Assembly (NCBI GenBank): GCA_963695555.1
Contig: CAVOGR010000001.1
Location: 512,001-576,000, forward strand
From: an uncultured Gemmatimonadales bacterium
GTDB lineage: Bacteria > Gemmatimonadota > Gemmatimonadetes > Gemmatimonadales > GWC2-71-9
Reading direction: 5' to 3'
Length of the DNA: 64,000 nt
The translations under genes and the position numbers were made by a program. Shown in pieces: positions 23,359-62,584 of this stretch (its first letter is position 1; each line of letters starts with the position of its first letter). The notes beneath the pieces were generated by a model. That model saw only the letters and a list, made by a program, of their open reading frames with translations, did no database searches and was not told the DNA's origin.

Positions 23359-24768
23359 TCAGCGGCGGCGACTCTGCGCGCGATCCAGGTGGGCGCTCAC
23401 CCGCTTGCGTCTGAGGAGCTTGCCATTCATCGCTGCGATGATCGCCTCGGCGTCACTGGCCGGAATCTCGACCAGCGCGTGGGTATCCTTGACTTCGATC
23501 CGGCCGACCACCTTCCGGTCGACCCCGATCTCCTTGGTGAGCACTGCAACCAGGTCGGCCACCGTGATCCCGTCCTTCCGGCCGGCGGACACGAACATCC
23601 GGGTCGTCGCCGGAACAGGCTCCGTGGCGGCGGCTGGTGCTGCCGCCTGTGCCTGCGGTGCCTCGCTCCAAAGGTGGTAGAGCGCCGCTGCCACCCGGAC
23701 AGAATCGAACCGATCGAACAACGGCGCGAGCGTGAGGACTGCCCCGTCGAGCGGCGTCCGAGCGATCAGGTCTGCGACCGAGGCGCGCCGGGCTGCCGCT
23801 TCGTCCCGGGCCGCCTCGAGCGCTCCGGGCAACCGCAGTGGCCGGTCCTCGACCCCGAGCGCTTCGACGTAGTGCCCCGCGATTGGCGGCACCAACAAGA
23901 CTCGGCTACCGGTTGCCGCCCACCCCCTGAGCCGGCGTGGCGTGGGCAAATCATAGGCGACCACGACCTCGGCCTCGGGAGGGTCGTCGTGGAACAGCGT
24001 CACCCCAGCCATCATCCCGGCCAGTGCCAGCCTTGCCTCCTCCCGGGCGGCTGACGTCGCGGTCCACACGGCACACCGGTCCGGATCCAGCAACGCCAGC
24101 GTGTCCCGAAGGGCTTCGCCCCTGCGATGCCACGGGACCGAGACGGTCCGGACGGGAGGAGGTGAGGGAACGGAGTCCTCGGGTCTCATCCCAACGGTGA
24201 GAGCCCGCCAGGCATGTCGCTCGATCACGGCCGCCGCTCGCTCCGGCGCGGCAGTGTAGATCAACCGCTGGCAGTCGCCTGAGACGTCAGCCATGAGATC
24301 CTGCAGGAGGGCATCGCCCTCCCAGACCTCGGGCCAGGCAAGCAGCAGGGTCTCGAGTTCGCTCGCTCGAAGCATCGAGCGCGCGAGGAGCTCGCGGGCG
24401 CGTGCGGGGGTTGTCAGGAGTATCGGGACGGGCTGGTCGCTCGGAATCCTGGTCCGCGGCGTGTCGGGAATGGCGAGGAAAGAGGATTCCGAGGTGGGAG
24501 CAAGCCGGGCCAGGAGCCAGGCCAGCTCTTCGAGCATAGTCGGGTGGGCGAGGACGAGCGACGTGGGCGTGGCCGCTTGGCGTCGCTCCGCGAGCAGGGC
24601 GAGAGCAGGGGCGGCATACGCTGCCGACGGCGGGGAAACCACGACCAAATTGTGCTTTCGCCTGATGGTCGGCACGGCATCACCTGCGAAGGCTTCTTCC
24701 AGCTGCCATCCGATCCGATCGAGCGCCGCGCGCTCCGATCCCGTTGGGATCGATTCCCTATCCGTCAT
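23359..24768 (-). CDS. Degenerate DEAD-box-like protein with C-terminal DbpA/CsdA RNA-binding domain
   Basis: C-terminal RMFVSAGRKDGITVADLV...VGRIEVKDTHALVEI matches the DbpA domain. Helicase-like layout (LVLAHPT, TTPAR, YDLP) but Walker A and DEAD motifs are replaced. Confidence 0.75.
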   Translation of the reverse strand: MTDRESIPTGSERAALDRIGWQLEEAFAGDAVPTIRRKHNLVVVSPPSAAYAAPALALLAERRQAATPTSLVLAHPTMLEELAWLLARLAPTSESSFLAIPDTPRTRIPSDQPVPILLTTPARARELLARSMLRASELETLLLAWPEVWEGDALLQDLMADVSGDCQRLIYTAAPERAAAVIERHAWRALTVGMRPEDSVPSPPPVRTVSVPWHRRGEALRDTLALLDPDRCAVWTATSAAREEARLALAGMMAGVTLFHDDPPEAEVVVAYDLPTPRRLRGWAATGSRVLLVPPIAGHYVEALGVEDRPLRLPGALEAARDEAAARRASVADLIARTPLDGAVLTLAPLFDRFDSVRVAAALYHLWSEAPQAQAAAPAAATEPVPATTRMFVSAGRKDGITVADLVAVLTKEIGVDRKVVGRIEVKDTHALVEIPASDAEAIIAAMNGKLLRRKRVSAHLDRAQSRRR

Positions 24769-24934: not shown

Positions 24935-26149
24935 ATGCCCATGCCCGATCCGCTCTCGTCAAACCTCGCCTACATCACGGCCTCTCAGACGGTCGCCATC
25001 TCCAACGAGGCGACTCGCCGGAAGGCCGCGGGCGAAGACGTCTTCGATCTTTCGGTTGGCGAGCCGGATTTCGACACGCCGAGCGTCGTCGCGCAGGCCG
25101 GCGTTCAGGCCATCCAGCGTGGTATGACCCACTATCCCCCCAACGTCGGAATTCCCGAGCTGCGAGCGGCCGTGGCTCTGCACCTGTCCCGTCTGAGCGC
25201 GGGCCGTCCCATCAACGCTGATCATATCATCGTCAGCACCGGCTCGAAGCAGGCGCTCTTCAATGCGTGCTTTGCCCTCTTCGGCCCCAAGGACAAGGTC
25301 CTCATTCCGGCGCCGGCCTGGGTGTCCTTCCCCCAAATCGTGCGCCTGGCGCGGGCAGAGCCCGTGCTCGTTCCCGGCGACGTCGAGTGGGGTCTCAAGG
25401 TGAACGTGGCCGACTTGGACCGGCAGGCCGACGGCCTGACCCGTGGCCTGATTCTCAATTCACCCTGTAATCCAACCGGTTCGGTCTACACGTTGAGCGA
25501 GTTGCGCGCCATCGCCGAGTGGGCGCACCGCCGGAACATCTGGATCATTTCCGACGAGATCTACCGGCGGATACACTACGGGTCGGGTCCGGCGCCGTCG
25601 CTGTTGGATCTTCCCGACGAGCTGCTCGAACGAGTGGTGATTACCTATGGAGCGAGCAAGGCGCATGCAATGACGGGCTGGCGCATCGGCGTGGCGCTCG
25701 CGCCTCCGGACGTCATGCGTGCAATGGCGGCCATCCAGTCGCACACCACCACCGGTGCCAATCATCCGGCGCAGTGGGCCGCCGCGACCGCGTTTAGTGA
25801 TGAACGGGCCGACCAGGCCGTGGAGGCAATGGTGGTCCAGCTCGCGCGCCGACGTGAATCGCTCGTGACGCGTTTCCGGACAGAGGCACCGGGCGTCGAA
25901 TTCGTTGAGCCGCACGGCGCGTTCTATCTCTTCTTCCGAGTGGACGGTTTCGAGGGCCCGGTTCAGACTGGGCAGGCCTTCTGTGAGCGGCTGATGGAAG
26001 AGCACGGCGTGGCCCTGGTTCCTGGTGCCGCCTTTGGAGACGATCGGTGGGTGCGGCTGAGTTATGCCGTCTCGGATGTGGACCTGGAGGCCGCGCTCGA
26101 ACGCGTCATCCCGTTCATTCAGCATCTTGCAGGGTCACGTGGCACCTAA
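24935..26149 (+). CDS. PLP-dependent aminotransferase class I/II (aspartate aminotransferase-like)
   Basis: LSVGEPDF, NSPCNPTG, SDEIY, SKAHAMTGWRIG, VPGAAFG. Confidence 0.95.
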   Translation: MPMPDPLSSNLAYITASQTVAISNEATRRKAAGEDVFDLSVGEPDFDTPSVVAQAGVQAIQRGMTHYPPNVGIPELRAAVALHLSRLSAGRPINADHIIVSTGSKQALFNACFALFGPKDKVLIPAPAWVSFPQIVRLARAEPVLVPGDVEWGLKVNVADLDRQADGLTRGLILNSPCNPTGSVYTLSELRAIAEWAHRRNIWIISDEIYRRIHYGSGPAPSLLDLPDELLERVVITYGASKAHAMTGWRIGVALAPPDVMRAMAAIQSHTTTGANHPAQWAAATAFSDERADQAVEAMVVQLARRRESLVTRFRTEAPGVEFVEPHGAFYLFFRVDGFEGPVQTGQAFCERLMEEHGVALVPGAAFGDDRWVRLSYAVSDVDLEAALERVIPFIQHLAGSRGT

Positions 26150-27095
26150 TCGCACCGCAGTCCGAGTCAGGCGAGGGCAGAGCACGCTGCTTCGCCGCGC
26201 GATGGCCGAGCGCGGGTTGAGCCCGGCGACGTGGCTACCGGAGGCAAGCGAAGGCCGGGTTGTTGAGGCAACGATTCAGCCTGCGCGGCTCATCGAGGAC
26301 CCGGAGCTCAGAACTCACGCCGTGGGCTCGGCCCAGGCCTGGCCCGGGCTGGTGGCCTTCCTTGACGGCATCCAGCGCTACCACATCGTCGGATACCTCG
26401 GCAGCACGCCACTGGTGGAGGCCCGGGTCGCGGCGGCGGTTCGGGTGCGCCGTGACCGCCGCCTCACGACGGCAGGATGGGAGCAGGAGCGGCTGATGCT
26501 GGGTCGGCCCGACGTGCTGCGCGCGGTCGAGGACCTGCTCGAGGATGCGCGACCGGTCGTGCTGCCCGACGACGAGCCGGGACATCCTGTGGTGGACCTC
26601 GAGGCGGCCCGCCGCGCGATCGATCGGGAGCGGGGGGCCTTGGAACTCCGAGTGGGCGACGCCTATCGGCAACAGGATGAGGGGTGGTTGGTGGTAGACG
26701 GCTCGCTGGCCGAGAGCCCGCAGTGGGCGGCCGCAGCGCGCATGATCGGGGTCTCGAAGAGCCATGCAACGTTGCCCTTCGCGGGCCGGGACCAAGTGGT
26801 GTACCTGGAACTGCCATATGGGAACCGCTCGTCGGTGTTCGCGCCCCAGTCCCACGCAGTCGCTCCGGTATATTCCTGGGCCTTGAGGCTCTGGCCGTGG
26901 GAAGGCCGGGATCTGTTTCACGGGTTGATCCGGGTCGAGACCGCTCCAACCCGCGAGGCGTTGGACGCGGCCGATCAGATCGGTCGTTGGCTCGTGGCGG
27001 AGCGCGCACCGATCGGCACACCGGATCCACGATGGGATCGCTTGTTGTATGGCATTCACGATGTTGAGGTATATCTCAAGTCCCGTATGGTCTGA
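26139..27095 (+). CDS. nurA: NurA-like nuclease
   Basis: Acidic motifs AFLDG and VVDGSL, GVSKS, C-terminal LLYGIHDVE; immediately upstream of a HerA-like ATPase. Start at GTG 26139 or ATG 26202. Confidence 0.72.
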   Translation: MAPNRTAVRVRRGQSTLLRRAMAERGLSPATWLPEASEGRVVEATIQPARLIEDPELRTHAVGSAQAWPGLVAFLDGIQRYHIVGYLGSTPLVEARVAAAVRVRRDRRLTTAGWEQERLMLGRPDVLRAVEDLLEDARPVVLPDDEPGHPVVDLEAARRAIDRERGALELRVGDAYRQQDEGWLVVDGSLAESPQWAAAARMIGVSKSHATLPFAGRDQVVYLELPYGNRSSVFAPQSHAVAPVYSWALRLWPWEGRDLFHGLIRVETAPTREALDAADQIGRWLVAERAPIGTPDPRWDRLLYGIHDVEVYLKSRMV

Positions 27096-27106
27096 AAGAA
27101 GTACAA

Positions 27107-29056
27107 ATGTCACGAGAGCAGGATGAAGTGATTCCGGTCGGTCGCGTGGTGGCGACGGAACTCAAGCCGTCTACTCCGCATCAATTCTATTTCTGGACGG
27201 CGCGGCAATCGCCGGTCGGCATTGGGGCCATCGTGCGAGTTGCGACGGTCGAGCGATTGGTCTATGGCGTGGTGACCGATGGGTACGCGTATTCCGATCT
27301 CATGACACCGCTGGACGACGTCATCGGAGCCGACGGCGATCCCGCGGCGGTCGATGCCCACCCGACCGAGCGGGCCGAGATCCGACTGTACGCCGCCGCG
27401 GTCCTCCGCCAGGAGCCTGCCGAGCCGCTCCAACCCGTACCGATCGGCGACGTGTTCCTCGCCACCGACATCGACGTGATCGCCGCCCTCCGCATGGACG
27501 CCTACACGGAGGGAGAGCGGGCGACGAAGCTTCCGATCGGCGTGTACCACGCGGCGGGCCTGCGTGCTCCCGTGTATCTCGACGCCGACTTCCTGCTCGG
27601 CCCGGAAGCCGCGCATCTCAATATCTCCGGGGTGTCGGGCCTCGCGACCAAGACCAGTGCCGTGGAATTCCTGTTGACGAGCATCTTCCAGACCTTTCCG
27701 GCGCATAAGGGCAGCGTGGCCGCGGTGTGTTTCAACGTGAAGGGTCCGGACCTCTGTTTCCTCGATCAACCGGGCGAGCTGTCCGCCGAGGACTTGGAGC
27801 TCTACGCGAAGCTCGACCTCGAGGCGGAGTGCTTCCAGTCGGTGCGCTACTTCGCGCCCTATAAGGCCGATGGCGTCAACCTCAACACCCTCCGCACCAA
27901 CCGGGCCTTATCCGGCAACACGGAACCGTTGGTCTGGGGGCTCCGCGAGGTGCTGGACTTCGCCGAGGTGCTCCTCAATCGGGATGATATCGATGCCAAG
28001 GCGGACGCGTTCATCGATTTCCTGGCGGATCGCGTGGTCGGCAAGGAGTACGTCGACACCACCCTACGGCAAGAGCCGTTTCGGGTACAGACGTTTGCCG
28101 ACCTGAACGATTTCTTCCGCGCGATTTTCGATTACGCCGAAGCGCTTGGTCGTGGGGAAGTGTGGCGTACACACCACCTGGCGACGATCCGCAAAGTGCG
28201 CAATCGCCTCAGCAATATCAGCACACGATCAAAGGGCCTGGTGACCGATGACGGCGTGGTGAACGACCTCCCGTGGGGCGAATTCCAGGATCGCAGCGTG
28301 CTTTGCATCGATGTGGCAGGCCTCGACCCGTTAGCCCAGGACCTGGTCTTTGCCAGAGTGGTTTCCAAACTCAGGGAGCACTTGGAACGCCGCGATCTGG
28401 GCGTCGATCATATCATCGTCTTCGTCGACGAGTTGAACAAGTACGCGCCCGCGGATGGGCCGGACACCTACGTGCGGAGGATGCTCCTGGATTTGTCGGA
28501 GCGCGGCCGCTATCTGGGACTGGCCCTCTTCTCCGCGCAACAGTTCCGATCGCAAGTGCACCGCCGAGTGGTTGGCAACGCCGGCACGTCGATCTTCGGT
28601 CGGATGGACATGGACGAGTTGGCGACACCGGGGTACTCCACCGTCACGCCGGCCACCAAGAGCAAGCTCGCCACCATGCCCAAGGGCGAACTCATGGTCC
28701 GCCACCCCCATTTCACCCAGCCCATCTTCGTGCGCTTCCCCAGACCCGCCGTCATGACCGGCCGGGACGGGATCGAGCGGTTCCCGCCCGAGCAGGATCT
28801 GAGCTTGGCCGAAGCCGTCCGCCGGCAGCTCCAGGCACTGGACCGGCACCTGTCCGCGGCCGATCTGGCGGGGCTCATTGAGGGGCGGCGCGACGTCGAT
28901 GTCCGGCGGGCCGTCCACGCTACCCGGCAGGCCCGTCCCGAGAACGTGCTGGCCTTCTTCCGTTCCTGCTTGGGCCGGGCCGTACCGCTCGAGGTCGCAC
29001 CGCCTCAGAGGGGAATCCCCGCGGTCAAGCGCAGCTCGGATCCGTACGCGCCCTAA
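27107..29056 (+). CDS. herA: HerA-like DNA translocase/ATPase
   Basis: N-terminal HAS-barrel-like region, variant Walker A HLNISGVSGLATKTS, FNVKG, Walker B IVFVDELNKYAP, arginine-finger ERGRYLG, AQQ. Confidence 0.85.
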   Translation: MSREQDEVIPVGRVVATELKPSTPHQFYFWTARQSPVGIGAIVRVATVERLVYGVVTDGYAYSDLMTPLDDVIGADGDPAAVDAHPTERAEIRLYAAAVLRQEPAEPLQPVPIGDVFLATDIDVIAALRMDAYTEGERATKLPIGVYHAAGLRAPVYLDADFLLGPEAAHLNISGVSGLATKTSAVEFLLTSIFQTFPAHKGSVAAVCFNVKGPDLCFLDQPGELSAEDLELYAKLDLEAECFQSVRYFAPYKADGVNLNTLRTNRALSGNTEPLVWGLREVLDFAEVLLNRDDIDAKADAFIDFLADRVVGKEYVDTTLRQEPFRVQTFADLNDFFRAIFDYAEALGRGEVWRTHHLATIRKVRNRLSNISTRSKGLVTDDGVVNDLPWGEFQDRSVLCIDVAGLDPLAQDLVFARVVSKLREHLERRDLGVDHIIVFVDELNKYAPADGPDTYVRRMLLDLSERGRYLGLALFSAQQFRSQVHRRVVGNAGTSIFGRMDMDELATPGYSTVTPATKSKLATMPKGELMVRHPHFTQPIFVRFPRPAVMTGRDGIERFPPEQDLSLAEAVRRQLQALDRHLSAADLAGLIEGRRDVDVRRAVHATRQARPENVLAFFRSCLGRAVPLEVAPPQRGIPAVKRSSDPYAP

Positions 29057-29096
29057 TCGGCTTGCTTCGGGCGCCGGGACGCGCCATTCTCCCCTA

Positions 29097-30281
29097 GTGA
29101 AGATCGCTCATTTAGCCGACATCCACCTTGGATATCGGCAGTTCCATCGGCAGACTCCCGCCGGGATCAATCAACGCGAAACGGACGTCGCCAATGCCTT
29201 CCGTGCCGCGGTGGACGGCGTCATCCGGGCCCGCCCGGACGTCGTGATCATCGCCGGCGATCTGTTTCATTCCGTCCGTCCGAGTAATGCCGCGATCCTC
29301 TTCGCGTTTCATCAGTTCCAGCGTCTGCGCGAAACCTTGCCGGACGCGCCGGTGATTCTGGTGGGCGGCAATCACGACACGCCCCGGTCGGCCGAAACGG
29401 GTTCCATCCTCGAGCTCTACACCCAACTGGGCGTGCACGTGGCCGCCCAGCAGCCGCTGCGCCTTCACTTTGCCGAACTCGATCTCTCGGTCCTGGCGGT
29501 CTCGTATGAGGCGCTCATGGGTTCGGAGCGGCCGGTGTTGCGTCCCGACGGGAGTGCGCAGCATCAGGTCTTGGTCCTGCACCGCGAGATCGAGGGAGTA
29601 CTGCCGGTCAATCGCGCGAGCATGCTGCACGAGGCGGGCGCATTGCTCCGCCAGGAGGACATCGGGCCCAAGGAGTGGAGTTACGTCGCCCTGGGCCACT
29701 ATCACGTCCAGCATGAGGTTGCGGCGAACGAGTGGTATGCCGGAGCGCTGGAATACGTGACCATGAACCCGTGGGGCGAGCTCCGAGATGAGTCCGAGCG
29801 CGGCCTCCGCGGCAAAGGGTGGCTGTTGGTGGAGCTCGATGGCACTCGTGTCCGGGCCGAGCGCCAGCCGGTGCCCGGTGTCCGCCATCTCATCGATCTC
29901 GATCCGCTCGATGCGACCGGCCGGAGTGCCGAGCAGTTGAGCGCCGACATCGAGGCGCGTGTCCGGGCCCCCGCAGAGGGATTGGATGGCAACATCGTCC
30001 GGTTGGTCGTGCGAAACGTGCCGCGCCACGTCGCCCGTGAGCTGGATCATGCGGCGATCCGATCCTACAAGGCTGAGGCGTTGCACTTCCACCTCGACCT
30101 GCGTCGCCCGGAAGCGTCCCGGCGCGTGGGGGTGGGTGGCCCGGGGCGGCGGCAAACGCTGCCGGAGCAGGTGGAAGACTATCTCACCCGTCGTCCGCTG
30201 CCGGCTGAAATCGATCGGGCCGCCTTCGTCCGGGCCGGCCTGGACCTCATCGAAGCAACCGAACGCGAGCTCGCCGAGTAG
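29097..30281 (+). CDS. sbcD: Mre11/SbcD metallophosphoesterase nuclease
   Basis: HLADIHLG, AGDLFH, GNHD, ALGHYH; GTG start at 29097. Confidence 0.93.
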   Translation: MKIAHLADIHLGYRQFHRQTPAGINQRETDVANAFRAAVDGVIRARPDVVIIAGDLFHSVRPSNAAILFAFHQFQRLRETLPDAPVILVGGNHDTPRSAETGSILELYTQLGVHVAAQQPLRLHFAELDLSVLAVSYEALMGSERPVLRPDGSAQHQVLVLHREIEGVLPVNRASMLHEAGALLRQEDIGPKEWSYVALGHYHVQHEVAANEWYAGALEYVTMNPWGELRDESERGLRGKGWLLVELDGTRVRAERQPVPGVRHLIDLDPLDATGRSAEQLSADIEARVRAPAEGLDGNIVRLVVRNVPRHVARELDHAAIRSYKAEALHFHLDLRRPEASRRVGVGGPGRRQTLPEQVEDYLTRRPLPAEIDRAAFVRAGLDLIEATERELAE

Positions 30282-30282
30282 C

Positions 30283-32706
30283 ATGCAAATCCACCGGCTC
30301 CGCTTGCTGAACTTCCGGCAACACGAGGATACTCAGATTGCCTTCGGCGCCGGGCTCACGGGCATCGTCGGTCCGAACGGCTCCGGAAAGACCACCCTGC
30401 TCGAGGCCATTGCCTACGCTATCTACGGCACGCCAGCGGCGCGCGGTACGCGAGACTCGCTCCGTCGCCGGGGGGCGCCGCCACGGTCTTCGGTTCGAGT
30501 CGAGCTGGACTTCACACTCGGCCCGCATGAGTACCGGGTCATCCGAGGCCTGAACACCGCAGAGCTCTATCAGGACGGCGAGCCCGCGCCGATTGCAAAC
30601 TCGATCGGCACGGTGACGGAGAAACTGACCCGGTGCCTCGGGATGACGCGGGAGGAGTTCTTCAACACCTACTTCACCGGGCAGAAGGAACTGGCCGTCA
30701 TGGCCGCGATGTCGGCCCCGGATCGCGCCCGGTTCTTGTCCCGTGTGCTGGGCTACGAGCGGCTGAAGATGGCGCAGGACCGGCTCAAGGTGACACGATC
30801 GGGCCTCAAGGCCCGGCATGAATTGCTCGAGGCAGGACTCCGCGACACTGCGGAGCTGGATGCCGAGGATGATCAGGCGCAGGCAAGACGAACGGCCGCC
30901 AAGAAGGCGCTGATCGAATCGGAGAGCCAAGCCACCAAGGCCGAAGCGCATCTGACCGACATGATGCCACGGTGGGAGACGGTCCAGAAGCTCCGGGAGA
31001 CGGTGTTGTCCTTGGACGGCGAGCGCCGCGTTGCCGAACATCATGTCGACGCTGCCCGCGAAAAGTTCAGCGTGCTCGACCGGCAGTTGATCGAGGCACT
31101 CGCCGCGCGAGAGAAATTGACTGATCTCACGCGGCAACTCGACGTGCTCGGCCCACTGGGGACCGAGCTCGAGGCGCTCAATCAACAGGCGGACCGCTTC
31201 GCCGCCCGCAAGGGCTACGAAGCGCAGCGCCAGGACAATCAGGCCCGGCTCGAGCGCGTGCGGGAGCGGCTCGGACGCATTCCCCCGCCGGAAACCCTCG
31301 AGGCCGCTGGGCGCCGCGTCGAAGAACTGAAAGTTGCAGGTCAAAGCGCAACGGCCGAGGCCGAGTCCAAGCGGACCGTGTGGGTTCGTGACGCCCAGGA
31401 AGCCCAGACCAAGCGCCAGACCCTGCTCGATCAGTACAAGGATGTGACCGAGCAGCGGGAGCGTATTCTCGAAGCGGGTGCCGAGGGTGCCTGTCCCACA
31501 TGTTCGCGGCCGCTTGGCCAGGACTATGAAGTGGTGTTGGGACTACTCGATCGGCAACTCGAGGCCATTCGAAACAACGGCAATTTCTACCGGCAGCGGA
31601 TCGAGCAGCTCGCCGACGTCCCGACGGATGTCCAAGAGGCCGAGCAGCGTCGAGATGCCCTTGAACGAGAGGCGTCCGATGCCAAGGTCGAGGTCCAGCG
31701 ATTGGCGGACCTGGTCGACGAACTCCCGGTCCTCACCAAGGAGCGGGAGGCGCTCGAGGTGAAGATGGCTGAGGTCAAGGCGCTGCTGGACTCGTCCCCG
31801 ACCGTGTACGATCACGAACGCCACCAGGCCGTGCGCGATCAGTTGAAAGCCCTCGAGCCCGTCGCTCTCGAAGCGGAGCGCATGAAGGTGACGGCGGAAC
31901 GTGCGGAAGGCCTGGTTGTCGAAGCGGAGCAGGCGGAGCGGGAGCTGAGCCAGCGTGAGACGGAATTCAAGGAGCTGACGGAGCGGCTTGCGGGTCTCGG
32001 GTTCAAGGAGGCCGACTACGCGGCAACACAAGCCGCGCTGGACGCGGCGCGAACACGGCGCCACGAGGCGGAGAAAGATGTGGTCCGCACACGGACGGAG
32101 CTGGCGGCCGCGGAAGAGGCTGTCGCAGCCGTCGAGCGGCGCCGGCGCGAGCGAGCCGAGCTCAGCCTCCGCGCCAAGCAGGCGGCTGCCGATCTTCTGC
32201 TCTACCAAGAGCTCGACCGCGCCCTGACCGATCTTCGCACCGATCTCAACGCCACACTCCGGCCGGAGCTGTCAGACCTGGCCTCGGTGTTCCTGCGAGA
32301 GCTGACCAATGGTCGGTATTCGGACTTGGAGCTCGACGAAGACTATGTGGCGACGATCCTGGAAGATGGCGAGGCCAAGCGCGTCATCTCGGGCGGGGAA
32401 GAGGACGTGGCCAACTTGGCGCTCCGCTTGGCGATCAGTCAGATGATCGCCGAGCGCGCGGGTCAACCACTCTCGCTCCTGGTGTTGGACGAAATCTTCG
32501 GCTCGCTCGACGAGGAACGACGCGCGGCCGTCGTCGAGCTTCTGCGGGGCCTGGCCGACCGGTTCCCGCAGGTCATCCTCATCACGCACATCGAATCGGT
32601 CAACGAAGGATTCGATCGCGTGATTCGGGTCGAGTTCGATGCGTCACGGGGCGTGTCGGTCGTGAGGGAACCCGCCGCCGAGGAGTTGGCCCATGCCGCG
32701 GCCTAA
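30283..32706 (+). CDS. sbcC: Rad50/SbcC SMC-family ATPase with zinc hook
   Basis: GPNGSGKTT, Q-loop, long coiled coils with central CPTC, signature ISGGE, LDEIFGSLD, LITH. Confidence 0.95.
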   Translation: MQIHRLRLLNFRQHEDTQIAFGAGLTGIVGPNGSGKTTLLEAIAYAIYGTPAARGTRDSLRRRGAPPRSSVRVELDFTLGPHEYRVIRGLNTAELYQDGEPAPIANSIGTVTEKLTRCLGMTREEFFNTYFTGQKELAVMAAMSAPDRARFLSRVLGYERLKMAQDRLKVTRSGLKARHELLEAGLRDTAELDAEDDQAQARRTAAKKALIESESQATKAEAHLTDMMPRWETVQKLRETVLSLDGERRVAEHHVDAAREKFSVLDRQLIEALAAREKLTDLTRQLDVLGPLGTELEALNQQADRFAARKGYEAQRQDNQARLERVRERLGRIPPPETLEAAGRRVEELKVAGQSATAEAESKRTVWVRDAQEAQTKRQTLLDQYKDVTEQRERILEAGAEGACPTCSRPLGQDYEVVLGLLDRQLEAIRNNGNFYRQRIEQLADVPTDVQEAEQRRDALEREASDAKVEVQRLADLVDELPVLTKEREALEVKMAEVKALLDSSPTVYDHERHQAVRDQLKALEPVALEAERMKVTAERAEGLVVEAEQAERELSQRETEFKELTERLAGLGFKEADYAATQAALDAARTRRHEAEKDVVRTRTELAAAEEAVAAVERRRRERAELSLRAKQAAADLLLYQELDRALTDLRTDLNATLRPELSDLASVFLRELTNGRYSDLELDEDYVATILEDGEAKRVISGGEEDVANLALRLAISQMIAERAGQPLSLLVLDEIFGSLDEERRAAVVELLRGLADRFPQVILITHIESVNEGFDRVIRVEFDASRGVSVVREPAAEELAHAAA

Positions 32707-33655
32707 GCGGCAGCTCGTGCAGGGGCCCGGTCCAGCGACGGTGGCCGACATTGAGCCCTTGAATGATCTGTTCTCGCGCTCGTTTACCGACCGATACCGG
32801 CGCGATGGGATGGCCGGCGTGCGCGTCCCGCGTCTCAATCCCGAGATCTGGCGTTATGCGATCGAGGACGCTGCCGACGGTGCCATGCTATGGCGCGACG
32901 CCGGCGGGCAGATTATCGCGTTCAATGTGGTCCACCGGTCGGGCTCCGAGGGGTGGATGGGACCCTTGGCGGTGCGTCCGGACCGCCAGAGTGAAGGGCT
33001 CGGCAAGCAAATCGTGCAAGCGGGAATCGATTGGCTCATGCGGCAGCGGGTTTCGACCATCGGGTTGGAGACCATGCCGCGAACCGTCGAAAACATCGGT
33101 TTCTACAGCCGCCTCGGCTTCATCCCCGGCCATCTGACCATCACGGTGGTCCGGGACGTGGTGCGGCGCCAGCGGGCGCCGGGAGTGTTGTTATCGTCGC
33201 TTGGTAAGCGCGAGGAGGCGGTGGTGTCCGAATGTCGCCGCCTGACCAACTCGCTTGCCCGCGGGACCGATTACACCCGTGAGATCGAATTGACCGCCCG
33301 GCTCGGCATCGGGGATACGTCCGTCGTAACCCGTGAGGGTGCCGTCACCGGGTACGCCCTGTGGCATTCGGCGCCGCTCGCTGAAGGTCGCGCTCGCGAC
33401 GAGTTGCGGGTGCTCAAGGTGGTCGCCGCAGACCTTGCGGTGTTCGAACAGCTCGTCGTTGACGTGCAGGCCCGTTGTCATGCCGCCCGTATGCGGCGCG
33501 TCAGCATTCGCTGCCCATCCCGGTATGCCGACGCATACCGGCTGGTATTCGATCATGGATTCCAGACACACTGGACCGACTTGCGGATGACGCTGGAATC
33601 GTACGGCGAAGTCCTGCCGCGGACGGGGGTCGTGTTTTCCAATTGGGAGATCTGA
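32693..33655 (+). CDS. GNAT-family N-acetyltransferase (likely two-domain)
   Basis: GPLAVRPDRQSEGLGK acetyl-CoA motif, NIGFYSRLGF; overlaps the sbcC stop by 14 nt. Confidence 0.85.
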   Translation: MPRPKRQLVQGPGPATVADIEPLNDLFSRSFTDRYRRDGMAGVRVPRLNPEIWRYAIEDAADGAMLWRDAGGQIIAFNVVHRSGSEGWMGPLAVRPDRQSEGLGKQIVQAGIDWLMRQRVSTIGLETMPRTVENIGFYSRLGFIPGHLTITVVRDVVRRQRAPGVLLSSLGKREEAVVSECRRLTNSLARGTDYTREIELTARLGIGDTSVVTREGAVTGYALWHSAPLAEGRARDELRVLKVVAADLAVFEQLVVDVQARCHAARMRRVSIRCPSRYADAYRLVFDHGFQTHWTDLRMTLESYGEVLPRTGVVFSNWEI

Positions 33656-33659
33656 CGCG

Positions 33660-33806
33660 TCACGCGCGCAGGGCCCACCATCGGACCAGGAGTACGGCGC
33701 CAAGGGCAAGCAGGAGATGCACGGCGCCGATCCCGACTGGCACGACGAAGCCAACCACGACCCACGCCGCAAGGCAGACGAGAGCAATCGCGAGTGTCGC
33801 ATTCAT
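33660..33806 (-). CDS. 48-aa two-helix membrane protein (lmo0937/DUF5670-like)
   Basis: Manual translation MNATLAIALVCLAAWVVVGFVVPVGIGAVHLLLALGAVLLVRWWALRA; G-x-x-H-L-L-L pattern. Below the ORF-track length cutoff. Confidence 0.7.
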   Translation of the reverse strand: MNATLAIALVCLAAWVVVGFVVPVGIGAVHLLLALGAVLLVRWWALRA

Positions 33807-33827
33807 AGGACAGTCCGAGTGATGTTA

Positions 33828-33856
33828 TTGACGCGTTGCCACCCGGGTCATATCTT
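33828..33856 (+). promoter_or_regulatory. Sigma70 promoter of the 6S-like RNA
   Basis: TTGACG 33828-33833, 17-bp spacer, TATCTT 33851-33856. Confidence 0.7.
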
Positions 33857-33861
33857 AGTTT

Positions 33862-34024
33862 GTCAGAACGGTAATGGGGAGACACAATTATTGAGCCAAC
33901 AGTCCGATCGCGGGCCCGAATACCGAGGTTGATGTCATGCCCCTACGGGGGAAGGCAGATGTCTAGGCGAGGGTGCCAAGCAATTCGATCCGGGCTTCAA
34001 TAATCCTCTTCGTTGCCGTTCGAC
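33862..34024 (+). ncRNA. ssrS: 6S RNA-like structured ncRNA (about 163 nt)
   Basis: Long rod with closing stems 33866-33881/34006-34021 (G-U rich) and 33887-33897/33993-34004, central bubble, apical CCCC-UACG-GGGG; own promoter and terminator. Confidence 0.75.
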
Positions 34025-34030
34025 CAGATT

Positions 34031-34059
34031 GCGCCGATCGTCCTGGTCGGCGCTTTTTG
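34031..34059 (+). terminator. Rho-independent terminator
   Basis: GCGCCGATC-GTCCT-GGTCGGCGC followed by TTTTTG. Confidence 0.85.
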
Positions 34060-34097
34060 TTCGTATCGTATCCACATTCTCATTCCAGCGAGGCGCG

Positions 34098-34511
34098 ATG
34101 CCGACCTGCACCGTAACGCGCCGAGTGCACTTCAATGCCGCGCACCGGCTCCATAACCCCGCGCAGTCCGACGAGTGGAACCGGAAGACGTTCGGCGCGT
34201 GTAACAATCCGAATTATCATGGACACAACTACGAGCTCGAGATAACGGTCGGGGGGGACATCGACCCTGCAACCGGCTATGTCCTCGATATCAGCGTGCT
34301 CAAAGCCATTGTCGATGAGCGGGTTGCTCAGGTCCTCGACCACAAGAATCTCAATTTGGACGTCCCCTGGTTCCGGGACCATATTCCATCCGCGGAAAAC
34401 ATTGCAGTGTTCTGCTGGGATCAGATCGCGCCCCGGCTTCCGGCCGGGCATTTGGTCCGAGTGCGACTCTGGGAAACCCCGAGGAACTATGTCGATTATC
34501 GAGGAGCGTGA
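34098..34511 (+). CDS. 6-pyruvoyl-tetrahydropterin synthase family (PTPS-II-type motif)
   Basis: [37 protein letters not shown]. Confidence 0.92.
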
Positions 34512-35094
34512 GCGCAAGACCTCCATGCCGCTGCCCATCTCGGAACACGTGCACCAGATGATCCTGGCGTTGGGTGAGGATCCACAGCGCCCGGGTCTCC
34601 TGAAGACCCCGGAGCGGGTCGATGCCGCGTTACGCTGGCTGACGCAGGGCTACACCATGTCCGTGGCCGACGCGGTGGGAGACGCGGTGTTCGAGGAGGC
34701 GCACGAAAGCATGATCATGGTGCGCGACATCGAGCTGTACTCACTCTGCGAACATCACATGCTGCCGTTCTTCGGCCGCGCCCATGTGGCCTATGTCCCC
34801 AACGGACGCATCGTCGGACTCTCCAAACTGCCACGGTTGGTGGACATCTTCGCCCGCCGGCTCCAGGTCCAGGAACGGATGACCGACCAGATCGCCGATG
34901 CCCTCATGGGCGTGCTCAATCCGCGCGGCGTCGGCGTGGTCATCGAAGCCGCCCACCTCTGCATGATGATGCGGGGCGTCCAGAAGCAGAATTCCAAGAC
35001 CGTGACCAGCGCCATGCGCGGCATCTTCAGGGACGATCCCAAGACCCGAGAGGAGTTTCTGAGCCTGGCCCACGGGGGCATCTTCAGCGAGTGA
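34489..35094 (+). CDS. folE: GTP cyclohydrolase I
   Basis: [41 protein letters not shown]. Confidence 0.97.
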
Positions 35095-61507: not shown

Positions 61508-62584
61508 TCAGCATGTGACTCGTCCTTCCGTGACCGTCCACACCGGCAGGGAGAGCGTTCGTGGCAGCTCGTCGCGACGCGGTGCCGATACGAACACCTG
61601 ACGGGTCTCACCACGATGCAGGCGTTCGACCAACCGTTCCTGCCGGTCCGCGTCCAACTCCGCGAACACGTCGTCCAGTACCAGGGCCGGCTCGGTTCCG
61701 GTCGCCTCGGCGAGCGTGGCGAGTTCGACCAGCTTCAGCGCGATCGCGGCGCTACGCTGCTGGCCGGTGGAGCCGTACTCCCGGAGCGCCCGTCCGTCGA
61801 TCTCGAGAATCAGATCGTCGCGATGGGGCCCGATGGTGGTCGTTCCCTTGCGGGAATCGACATTCCAGGAGGCCTCGAGCGCGTCGGGCCATGCCTCGAG
61901 TGCCGACAGCTCCTCCCGCCCGCGGTACCGCATGCCGACGCTCGCCGTTTCTCCGAGTGTCGCGAACTCCCTCGCGAACGCCACCGCCGCCGGGCCGGCC
62001 CATCTGGCGCGGCCCGCGACGATCTCTGCCCCGGTCGCGGCGAGGGCTACGTCGAAGGCGCGCACCACCTCGCGGCGCTGGGTCCGGAGCGCCGCATTGC
62101 GCTGAGCCAGGACCGCCCGGTACCGCGAGAGTGCGGTGAGATATCCGCGATCGGCCAGGCAGAGCAGCCGATCCACGTACCGACGTCGCTCAGCGGCTGA
62201 CCCGGAGGCCAGCACCACATCGGATGGGAGGAACGCCACGGCAATCCAACGGCCCAGTCCCTCCAGCATGCGCTCCGGTTCCGTGCCGTCGATCTCTACC
62301 CGCTTCCGCTTCGGTGCGACCCGGAAATCCGCCGAGATCGTCCCGGCTCGGCCGTCGCGCCGGACCCGGTTCTCAACGCGAAACCCGGGACCTCCAAATC
62401 CGACGACTTCCCGGTCCGCGGCTCCCCGGAAGGAGCGAAACAACACCGGGTAGTAGACGGCCTCGAGCAGGTTCGTTTTCCCTTGGGCGTTGGCTCCAAG
62501 AAGGGCGACACCGTCCTTGGGCAGCGACAATTCCATCGACGCCAGGTTGCGGAACCCTCGCACCACCACGTCTTCCAGCCACAC
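61508..62584 (-). CDS. recF: DNA replication and repair protein RecF
   Basis: FRNL, GANAQGKTNLLEA, RRRYVD, GPHRDDL, STGQQR, LDDVFAELD. Confidence 0.96.
   Translation of the reverse strand: MWLEDVVVRGFRNLASMELSLPKDGVALLGANAQGKTNLLEAVYYPVLFRSFRGAADREVVGFGGPGFRVENRVRRDGRAGTISADFRVAPKRKRVEIDGTEPERMLEGLGRWIAVAFLPSDVVLASGSAAERRRYVDRLLCLADRGYLTALSRYRAVLAQRNAALRTQRREVVRAFDVALAATGAEIVAGRARWAGPAAVAFAREFATLGETASVGMRYRGREELSALEAWPDALEASWNVDSRKGTTTIGPHRDDLILEIDGRALREYGSTGQQRSAAIALKLVELATLAEATGTEPALVLDDVFAELDADRQERLVERLHRGETRQVFVSAPRRDELPRTLSLPVWTVTEGRVTC

Follow-up and report, generated by a model that had tools for sequence, protein, structure and literature searches.

A conserved nurA-herA-mre11-rad50 gene string of bacterial type, followed by a tandem-GNAT acetyltransferase gene, in Gemmatimonadales

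Does a bacterium from mesophilic habitats carry, as a working chromosomal operon, the four-gene set for DNA end resection that is clustered in thermophilic archaea, and does an acetyltransferase gene that overlaps its end belong to that machinery? The question is raised by a stretch of 64,000 nt from an uncultured Gemmatimonadales bacterium (contig CAVOGR010000001.1 of assembly GCA_963695555.1; hereafter "the window"), in which an earlier note, made from the sequence alone, had described a complete archaeal-style NurA-HerA-Mre11-Rad50 operon with a coupled GNAT acetyltransferase. The source genome is 3.57 Mb in 14 contigs and 87% complete, and the G+C content of the window is uniform at 0.63-0.67 throughout. 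The string, at 26202-33655, is real, and the locus is probably a chromosomal, vertically inherited housekeeping operon for double-strand-break processing in Gemmatimonadales.

It is clear from reading the open reading frames (ORFs) and each junction that nurA, herA, mre11/sbcD, rad50/sbcC and the GNAT gene follow one another on the plus strand, and the spacing reported earlier is exact. The TGA stop of nurA and the ATG of herA are separated by 11 nt, the herA stop and the GTG start of mre11 by 40 nt, and the mre11 stop and the ATG of rad50 by a single nucleotide; the ATG of the GNAT gene lies inside the end of rad50, giving an overlap of 14 nt (Table 1). The first four genes therefore adjoin on one strand, as they do in the archaeal operon. 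The aminotransferase gene upstream, said in the earlier note to abut or overlap nurA, does adjoin it, but the overlap was not upheld. An earlier call of the nurA start at GTG 26139 would overlap the aminotransferase stop at 26149; most related loci match from residue 1-5 of the version beginning at ATG 26202, and other homologue matches begin at about residue 17-20 of the longer version. The gene therefore probably begins at 26202, at a distance of 52 nt from the aminotransferase gene.

Identification of the first gene needed a family profile and a structural model, because direct database searches gave no match. Its product matches no Pfam family even at an E-value of 10 and nothing in NCBIfam, PADLOC or a single-sequence PDB search, and the Pfam NurA model (PF09376, gathering score 21 bits) matches neither this protein nor anything else in the source genome. 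More than 1100 family matches were found, all unnamed or "hypothetical", forming 510 clusters at 50% identity (E<=0.001); the named members of this subfamily belong to Gemmatimonadota and Armatimonadota. A profile built from 84 members (A1) matches 1zup_A (TM1739 of Thermotoga maritima) at 7e-9 and 7f6d_H (Deinococcus radiodurans NurA) at 1.4e-8. Seventeen of the 84 members match Pfam NurA at E<=0.1, the best at 1.5e-5, and a relative from a sister family scores 26.3 bits on the same model. The AlphaFold2 (AF2) model of the window protein (predicted local distance difference test, pLDDT, 94.5; predicted template modelling score 0.92) has the RNase H-like fold of solved NurA structures, as the earlier note had proposed. 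Foldseek ranks D. radiodurans NurA (7f6d_G, 1.9e-11) above all others, followed by TM1739 (1zup, 4.6e-11; template modelling (TM) score 0.64); the archaeal NurA proteins of Sulfolobus solfataricus (2ygk, 6e-6) and Pyrococcus furiosus (6.6e-3) are matched more weakly, and endonuclease V and Argonaute PIWI folds rank after the NurA structures. Furthermore, the motifs FLDG (D55-G56) and VDG (D166-G167) and the residues E148, E246 and E267 are invariant or at least 90% conserved in the 84 sequences, and in alignment the DG motifs fall on FVDG and KDG in TM1739 and on QDG in the NurA of D. radiodurans; together the DG motifs and acidic residues would form the NurA active site. The protein is a divergent bacterial-type NurA.

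The identities of the other three proteins given in the earlier note also hold. The sole PDB match of HerA in a phmmer search is 7f6d_B, the HerA of D. radiodurans (E 1.9e-41), aligned over the N-terminal region (query 10-283) and the ATPase core (396-557); the Walker-type motifs ISGVSGLATKTS and VDELNKYAP are common to both proteins. No archaeal HerA structure was matched at E<=1. Among curated models, HerA reaches the HAS-barrel (E 0.11) as its sole Pfam family and the PADLOC HerA model at 2.9e-5, with no match in NCBIfam. Mre11 scores 48.3 bits on Metallophos against a cut-off of 21.5, and the motifs DIHLG, GDLFH, GNHD and GHYH are visible in its translation. Its NCBIfam matches, all below the model cut-offs, are led by the archaeal Mre11_Sulfo (9.4e-24), with the sbcd model TIGR00619 at 1.5e-19 (70.8 bits, cut-off 77.65); in the PDB it matches P. 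furiosus Mre11 (1ii7) at 2.2e-17, the T. maritima protein at 2.3e-6 and SbcD (7dog) at 1e-5. Rad50 matches SMC_N at 2e-22 (80.1 bits) and, again above cut-off, AAA_23 and SbcC_Walker_B. It fits the archaeal NCBIfam model PRK03918 at 1.8e-57 as against 3.2e-27 for sbcc, it matches the PDB structure 3aux at 1.4e-31, both halves of the ATPase head (query 3-184 and 662-787) match Rad50 structures, and all 27 relatives compared share the zinc hook C404-P-T-C407. Judged by sequence and predicted fold, then, NurA and HerA are of the bacterial (Deinococcus/Thermotoga) type, and it is the four-gene organisation alone that resembles the archaeal operon. Of the description "archaeal-style", the gene set stands, while the protein type of NurA and HerA and the gene order, which is not that of Sulfolobales, do not.

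Recurrence of the arrangement was followed in two samples. For the first, one genome per species was scanned with a 14-sequence NurA alignment, which gave 406 pattern matches and 246 confirmed NurA relatives; the loci of the best 80 of these 246, all with Gemmatimonad- titles except one "Acidimicrobiia", were compared with six window proteins by tblastn. The arrangement recurs in 80/80 loci as far as the DNA reaches, and so is more than chance. HerA lies within 2 kb after NurA in 66/66 loci, Mre11 is downstream of HerA in 51/56 (38/40 where at least 7.5 kb of DNA is available past HerA) and within 300 nt of it in 35/56, Rad50 comes after Mre11 in 48/48, and the GNAT gene starts within 200 nt after Rad50 in 45/45. 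On the left, the aminotransferase gene is upstream of NurA in 56/60 loci (directly adjoining in 35/72) and a DbpA-domain gene is upstream of the aminotransferase gene in 56/56; on the right, QueD/FolE genes follow within 3 kb of GNAT in only 14/30. Homologues are named Gemmatimonadales or Gemmatimonadota.

The second, independent sample comprised 200 further genomes of the phylum, 137 from three families of the order and 63 others. Among the 137, GNAT was found in 137, Rad50 in 135, HerA in 125 and NurA, by profile, in 110. Adjacency by coordinates was then taken from 137 GNAT-bearing genomes, including that of the window (three weak or partial GNAT matches had been dropped beforehand): the GNAT gene starts less than 200 nt after rad50 in 131, is on the same strand 1.1-4.8 kb away in four, is on another contig in one, and has no Rad50 match to accompany it in the last. 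In the 113 genomes with a strong NurA match, rad50 starts within 4 kb of the end of nurA in 38, which are compact like the window; the distance is 4-12 kb, with insertions, in 59 and 19 kb in one, the two genes are on different contigs or strands in 14, and one genome lacks a Rad50 match. One member of this set, G157, is unpublished, and the conclusions are independent of it. The synteny of the four genes in relatives is thus borne out and, within the order, so is the linkage of the GNAT gene.

Outside the order, in the other 63 genomes of the phylum, the GNAT family is essentially absent, with one weak partial match. Divergent NurA and HerA are present in 18 of 23 genomes of a sister family, where the order nurA-herA-mre11-rad50 is seen in two regions, whose Rad50 is longer (1036-1131 amino acids). 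In at least 11 genomes HerA precedes NurA by 4-6 kb, both being on one strand; the single locus of this kind that was annotated is herA-sbcD-sbcC-nurA. No GNAT gene follows the cluster in any annotated sister-family region. The ORF after the NurA-like gene in locus L088 was considered as HerA and rejected (BLASTP E 1.3), HerA lying upstream of that cluster. A separate case is sister-family genome G049, whose strong NurA-profile match (C68:112229-113131, L085) adjoins a histone-deacetylase-family gene and a methyltransferase gene, with HerA and Rad50 on another contig (C44:56270-63631). More distant relatives, 28-50% identical to the window NurA, were taken from 80 metagenome contigs (G+C 0.46-0.68 in those listed; the distant NurA clusters have named members from Armatimonadota). 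There HerA follows NurA in 36/55, Mre11 follows HerA in 18/24, all four genes occur in order in 11/25 informative loci, and GNAT follows Rad50 in 0/13; the genes downstream of these clusters are varied housekeeping genes (endonuclease-III-like, polyprenyl synthase, QueC, URO-D-like and others).

What would such a locus do? The genome has RecF, RecO, RecR, RecJ, a RecQ-like helicase, LexA and Ku, so that the RecFOR set envisaged earlier is present, with recF in the window itself. No PDDEXK_1 domain, which RecB, AddA/B and AdnA/B carry as their nuclease, was found in the 87%-complete genome, nor was a match to the RecC family or a second SbcC above cut-off; the window Rad50 is the only SbcC_Walker_B match above cut-off in the genome. 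The flanks of the block are housekeeping genes: aminotransferase, DbpA-domain protein, QueD and FolE. NurA-HerA of D. radiodurans is reported to resect DNA ends (PMC9960219). By homology, Mre11-Rad50, as the lineage's only SbcCD-type complex, would recognise and clean DNA ends, a HerA hexamer would support processive resection by feeding the DNA to a dimer of NurA, whose family is characterised by 5'-3' exonuclease and endonuclease activity, and the resulting 3' tails would be passed to RecA via RecFOR. The tandem-GNAT gene would have been fixed right after rad50 at the base of the order, and in this genome is probably translationally coupled to rad50. As a separate observation, the RecJ match (G000:C5:40070-41661; L001-L003) is split over three frames, the first shift lying beside C5, G5 and A4 homopolymers; this is probably a long-read assembly error and not a pseudogene.

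Several observations weigh against the reading as a housekeeping operon for break processing. The absence of recBCD and addAB is provisional, because the genes could sit in the missing part of the genome, and a promoter scan gave no sigma-70-like candidate ahead of the string. In 21/56 loci 0.4-7 kb of other DNA lies between herA and mre11, and two loci have no mre11 within about 8 kb of herA; the four genes are therefore not always one transcription unit. Within the order, NurA was not found in 27/137 genomes and HerA not in 12/137. Eight GNAT-centred regions from genomes without a NurA match were inspected: six (G066, G172, G021, G038, G127 and G138; L094-L098 and L101) keep herA-mre11-rad50-GNAT with no nurA, three of them with merely 530-590 nt between the aminotransferase gene and herA, and two (G067 and G069; L099 and L100) retain the aminotransferase gene, mre11-rad50 and GNAT but lack both nurA and herA. 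Of the latter two genomes, one is complete (4.6 Mb) and from a second family, and the other is from a third family. NurA-HerA is therefore dispensable, and is not the sole resection route. The constant part of the block across the order is mre11-rad50-GNAT.

HerA without a nuclease partner, as in the nurA-less genomes, is unexpected; there it may work with Mre11-Rad50. In addition, a conserved ORF of about 168 amino acids with no Pfam family, which does not occur in the window, lies between the aminotransferase gene and nurA (or herA where nurA is missing) in 39 loci, for example at L097:9945-10454 and L098:7999-8505, with two copies 40% identical. It was considered as a diverged NurA and rejected (hhalign probability 0.4%); since it also stands alongside NurA in many loci, it is an additional gene and does not stand in for NurA.

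Two other accounts of the block were weighed against the housekeeping one. It could be an anti-phage or anti-plasmid system that degrades foreign linear DNA and has no part in repair. HerA-type and SMC-type ATPases do recur in defence systems; PADLOC models are matched by Rad50 (LmuB 8.3e-35, mad3 3.8e-34) and HerA (mad8 5e-7, HerA 3e-5); the NurA model resembles chain 8wfd_G of the TdpAB complex (E 1.9e-5, TM 0.39); and a 2026 review (PMC13748450) gives the degradation of foreign DNA as the main activity of bacterial NurA-HerA, which adds to the points against a repair role. The PADLOC matches, however, are to generic ATPase domains (LmuB, mad3 and PtuA for Rad50), with none for NurA or GNAT and none or a weak one for Mre11, and the component set gives no strong match to any PADLOC defence-system models. 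The closest structures to NurA and HerA are those of the D. radiodurans repair complex and not TdpAB, the block is single-copy at the same chromosomal site across the order between conserved housekeeping flanks, its composition is uniform, and it holds the genome's only SbcCD-type pair. A housekeeping role fits better, as the earlier note had favoured, and defence is very improbable. The operon could alternatively have been acquired whole from thermophilic archaea by horizontal transfer, and the scores of Mre11 and Rad50 given above speak for this, both proteins fitting archaeal models and structures better than E. coli, Bacillus or Staphylococcus SbcCD. Those matches nevertheless all fall far below equivalog cut-offs, NurA and HerA score best on bacterial structures, the gene order is unlike the archaeal orders given in PMC13748450, and the many clusters of the NurA subfamily have named members in Gemmatimonadota and Armatimonadota. 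Both a defence role and wholesale archaeal transfer are thus unlikely, the transfer to the point of being barely credible, and vertical inheritance as a housekeeping operon is retained as the probable account.

The GNAT protein scores 43.1 bits on Acetyltransf_1 against a cut-off of 20.7, and its AF2 model (pLDDT 93.6) contains two GNAT domains. Across 27 sequences neither the acetyl-CoA motif Q99-x-x-G102-x-G104, in the N-terminal domain, nor the C-terminal SNWEI varies, and the mean column identity is 69%. By fold it matches 3tt2 and 3ddd, which are uncharacterised tandem GNATs, and glucosamine N-acetyltransferase, N-myristoyltransferase and MshD, at TM 0.62-0.67 and a sequence identity of only 9-16%, as well as VipF; among solved proteins the closest in sequence are RimI (8.9e-5) and Naa30, in the range 1e-4 to 1e-3. 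The predicted fold would fit protein and small-molecule substrates alike. A complex prediction of the Rad50 head (residues 1-230 and 580-807) with GNAT returned a score of 0.00, which counts neither way.

It had been proposed that this protein is a regulatory fifth component, that is, a dedicated acetyltransferase modifying Mre11-Rad50 (or NurA-HerA) and thereby regulating end processing in the order. Its position speaks for this, both in the 45 informative loci and in the 131 genomes where it directly follows rad50, as do the start-stop overlap with rad50, seen in the window and a few relatives, and its near-identical distribution to rad50, more universal than that of nurA or herA. It is kept beside mre11-rad50 where nurA and herA are gone, it is more tightly linked than the genes of the right flank, its sequence is highly conserved with motif and C-terminus intact, and its nearest characterised sequences, RimI and Naa30, are protein N-terminal acetyltransferases. 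On the other side, the gene is confined to one order, and the four-gene clusters of the sister family lack it, as do all 13 distant clusters; the genome counts are not independent, because the genomes are kin; and the fold also matches the small-molecule enzymes MshD and glucosamine N-acetyltransferase. The rad50-GNAT link is no tighter than the evidently unrelated left flank, where the DbpA-domain and aminotransferase genes are equally conserved, so that tight synteny is no proof of shared function. The fifth-component proposal, already strained by the retention of GNAT without nurA or without nurA-herA, is accordingly not supported, and is unlikely. A variant of it takes mre11-rad50-GNAT as the conserved unit. 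The coupled tandem-GNAT would then switch end processing by acylating Mre11-Rad50 or a partner, perhaps at the N-terminus of a protein, and NurA-HerA would be optional and repeatedly lost. This is decidedly doubtful, although, if true, a prokaryotic Mre11-Rad50 complex would for the first time be seen to be controlled by an acetyltransferase encoded in its own operon. The GNAT gene is best described as an order-specific, tightly linked conserved neighbour whose function in repair is unproven.

The immediate surroundings of the string are summarised in Table 1. The co-oriented aminotransferase gene may share a transcript with it. Further upstream, the divergent gene for a protein of 469 amino acids has a C-terminal DbpA RNA-binding domain as its sole domain match. 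Convergent with the GNAT gene is an ORF of 48 codons without a Pfam match; the peptide it would encode is strongly hydrophobic and has two probable membrane helices. The ORF may have arisen by chance or may code for a small membrane protein. By pattern match, the first strong terminator-like hairpin downstream of the string is 375 nt past the GNAT stop and is a possible candidate for the operon end; queD, for a 6-pyruvoyl-tetrahydropterin synthase, and a folE-like gene lie beyond it. Rfam and tRNA scans found no RNA genes in the window.

Table 1. Coordinates within the window of the gene string and of features around it.
Feature	Position	Strand	Product or description	Basis or remark
DbpA-domain gene	23359-24768	-	469 amino acids; upstream of and divergent from the aminotransferase gene	C-terminal DbpA RNA-binding domain
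aminotransferase gene	24935..26149	+	aminotransferase class I/II	Pfam Aminotran_1_2 E 4.3e-72; start inferred as first ATG of conserved part
nurA	26202..27095	+	divergent bacterial-type NurA nuclease, 297 amino acids	family profile and predicted fold; alternative start GTG 26139
herA	27107..29056	+	HerA-type hexameric translocase ATPase, 649 amino acids	phmmer match to 7f6d_B HerA
mre11/sbcD	29097..30281	+	Mre11-type phosphoesterase nuclease, 394 amino acids, GTG start	Metallophos 2.1e-12
rad50/sbcC	30283..32706	+	SMC-like ATPase with zinc hook, 807 amino acids	SMC_N, AAA_23, SbcC_Walker_B
GNAT gene	32693..33655	+	tandem-GNAT acetyltransferase, 320 amino acids	Acetyltransf_1 6e-11, residues 53-143
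small ORF	33660-33806	-	48 codons, hydrophobic peptide	
terminator-like hairpin	34031..34053	+	hairpin with T-run, candidate operon end	consensus scan: 10-pair stem, 7 G-C pairs, tail TTTTTGTTCG
queD and folE-like genes	34098-35094	+	6-pyruvoyl-tetrahydropterin synthase and FolE-like protein	PTPS 8.9e-37 (queD)
recF	61589-62575	-	RecF	

DNA of this locus is contained in sequencing runs from estuary, sediment and soil. RNA-library (X1) contigs from an estuary strain, 95-99% identical, cover all 30 bins of 25000-34500 and span the NurA/HerA, HerA/Mre11 and Rad50/GNAT junctions, with gaps such as 26202-26387 among the pieces listed. They suggest weakly that the locus is expressed, since DNA carry-over is possible in RNA libraries and a contig is not equal to a single transcript.

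On this analysis, an entire bacterial order holds the four-gene, archaeal-type end-resection set as a stable core locus passed on vertically, and the set turns up again with other gene orders elsewhere in the phylum and among distant metagenomic relatives. As this NurA family is missed by Pfam and its members are named "hypothetical", such operons are under-annotated. In a lineage seemingly without RecBCD and AddAB, the locus is the likely long-range resection machinery. Furthermore, the order offers a natural experiment, with genomes that have all four genes, genomes with herA but no nurA, and genomes with neither, and the unvarying association of rad50 with GNAT gives a testable clue to how Mre11-Rad50 might be regulated.

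How does the locus compare with known systems? The predicted two-domain fold of the GNAT protein is that of the tandem GNATs 3TT2 (Sphaerobacter) and 3DDD (Pyrococcus), of MshD, of glucosamine N-acetyltransferase and of N-myristoyltransferase, none of which is known to be linked to Mre11-Rad50. Among the matches listed in a full-text literature search there was no paper on a Gemmatimonadales NurA-HerA-Mre11-Rad50 cluster. In thermophilic archaea (Sulfolobales and Thermococcales) the same four functions lie in one co-oriented cluster, as in the window, and the archaeal Rad50 likewise has a zinc hook and a similar length. The archaeal orders are herA-mre11-rad50-nurA or nurA-rad50-mre11-herA (Constantinesco 2004, as cited in PMC13748450), whereas that of the window is nurA-herA-mre11-rad50, with bacterial-type NurA and HerA and a host from mesophile habitats. 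Within the phylum, at least 11 sister-family genomes place HerA 4-6 kb before NurA, and the annotated example has sbcD-sbcC in the interval.

D. radiodurans NurA-HerA (PDB 7F6D and 7WRW/7WRX; PMC9960219) shares with the window a homologous HerA and provides the best fold match to its NurA. The order nurA-herA within one operon is also the same in the two organisms. In D. radiodurans, sbcCD presumably sits elsewhere in the genome, whereas in the window mre11-rad50 comes directly after herA, a GNAT gene is attached, and NurA has diverged beyond what the Pfam NurA model recognises. A further parallel is Oceanithermus profundus, of another phylum (Deinococcota), in which sbcD and sbcC lie downstream of nurA-hepA (herA), that is, the same four genes in the same order as in the window; the available text of Blesa et al. 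2017 (PMC5448004) reads this string as an archaeal-like architecture for double-strand-break repair and does not mention a GNAT gene beside it. Given Oceanithermus, another order of the phylum and 11 of the 25 informative distant contigs, the earlier statement that most bacteria keep sbcCD apart from herA-nurA was too strong. The string of the window is thus real, vertically inherited and not unprecedented in bacteria: a well-conserved new case of a bacterial-type operon.

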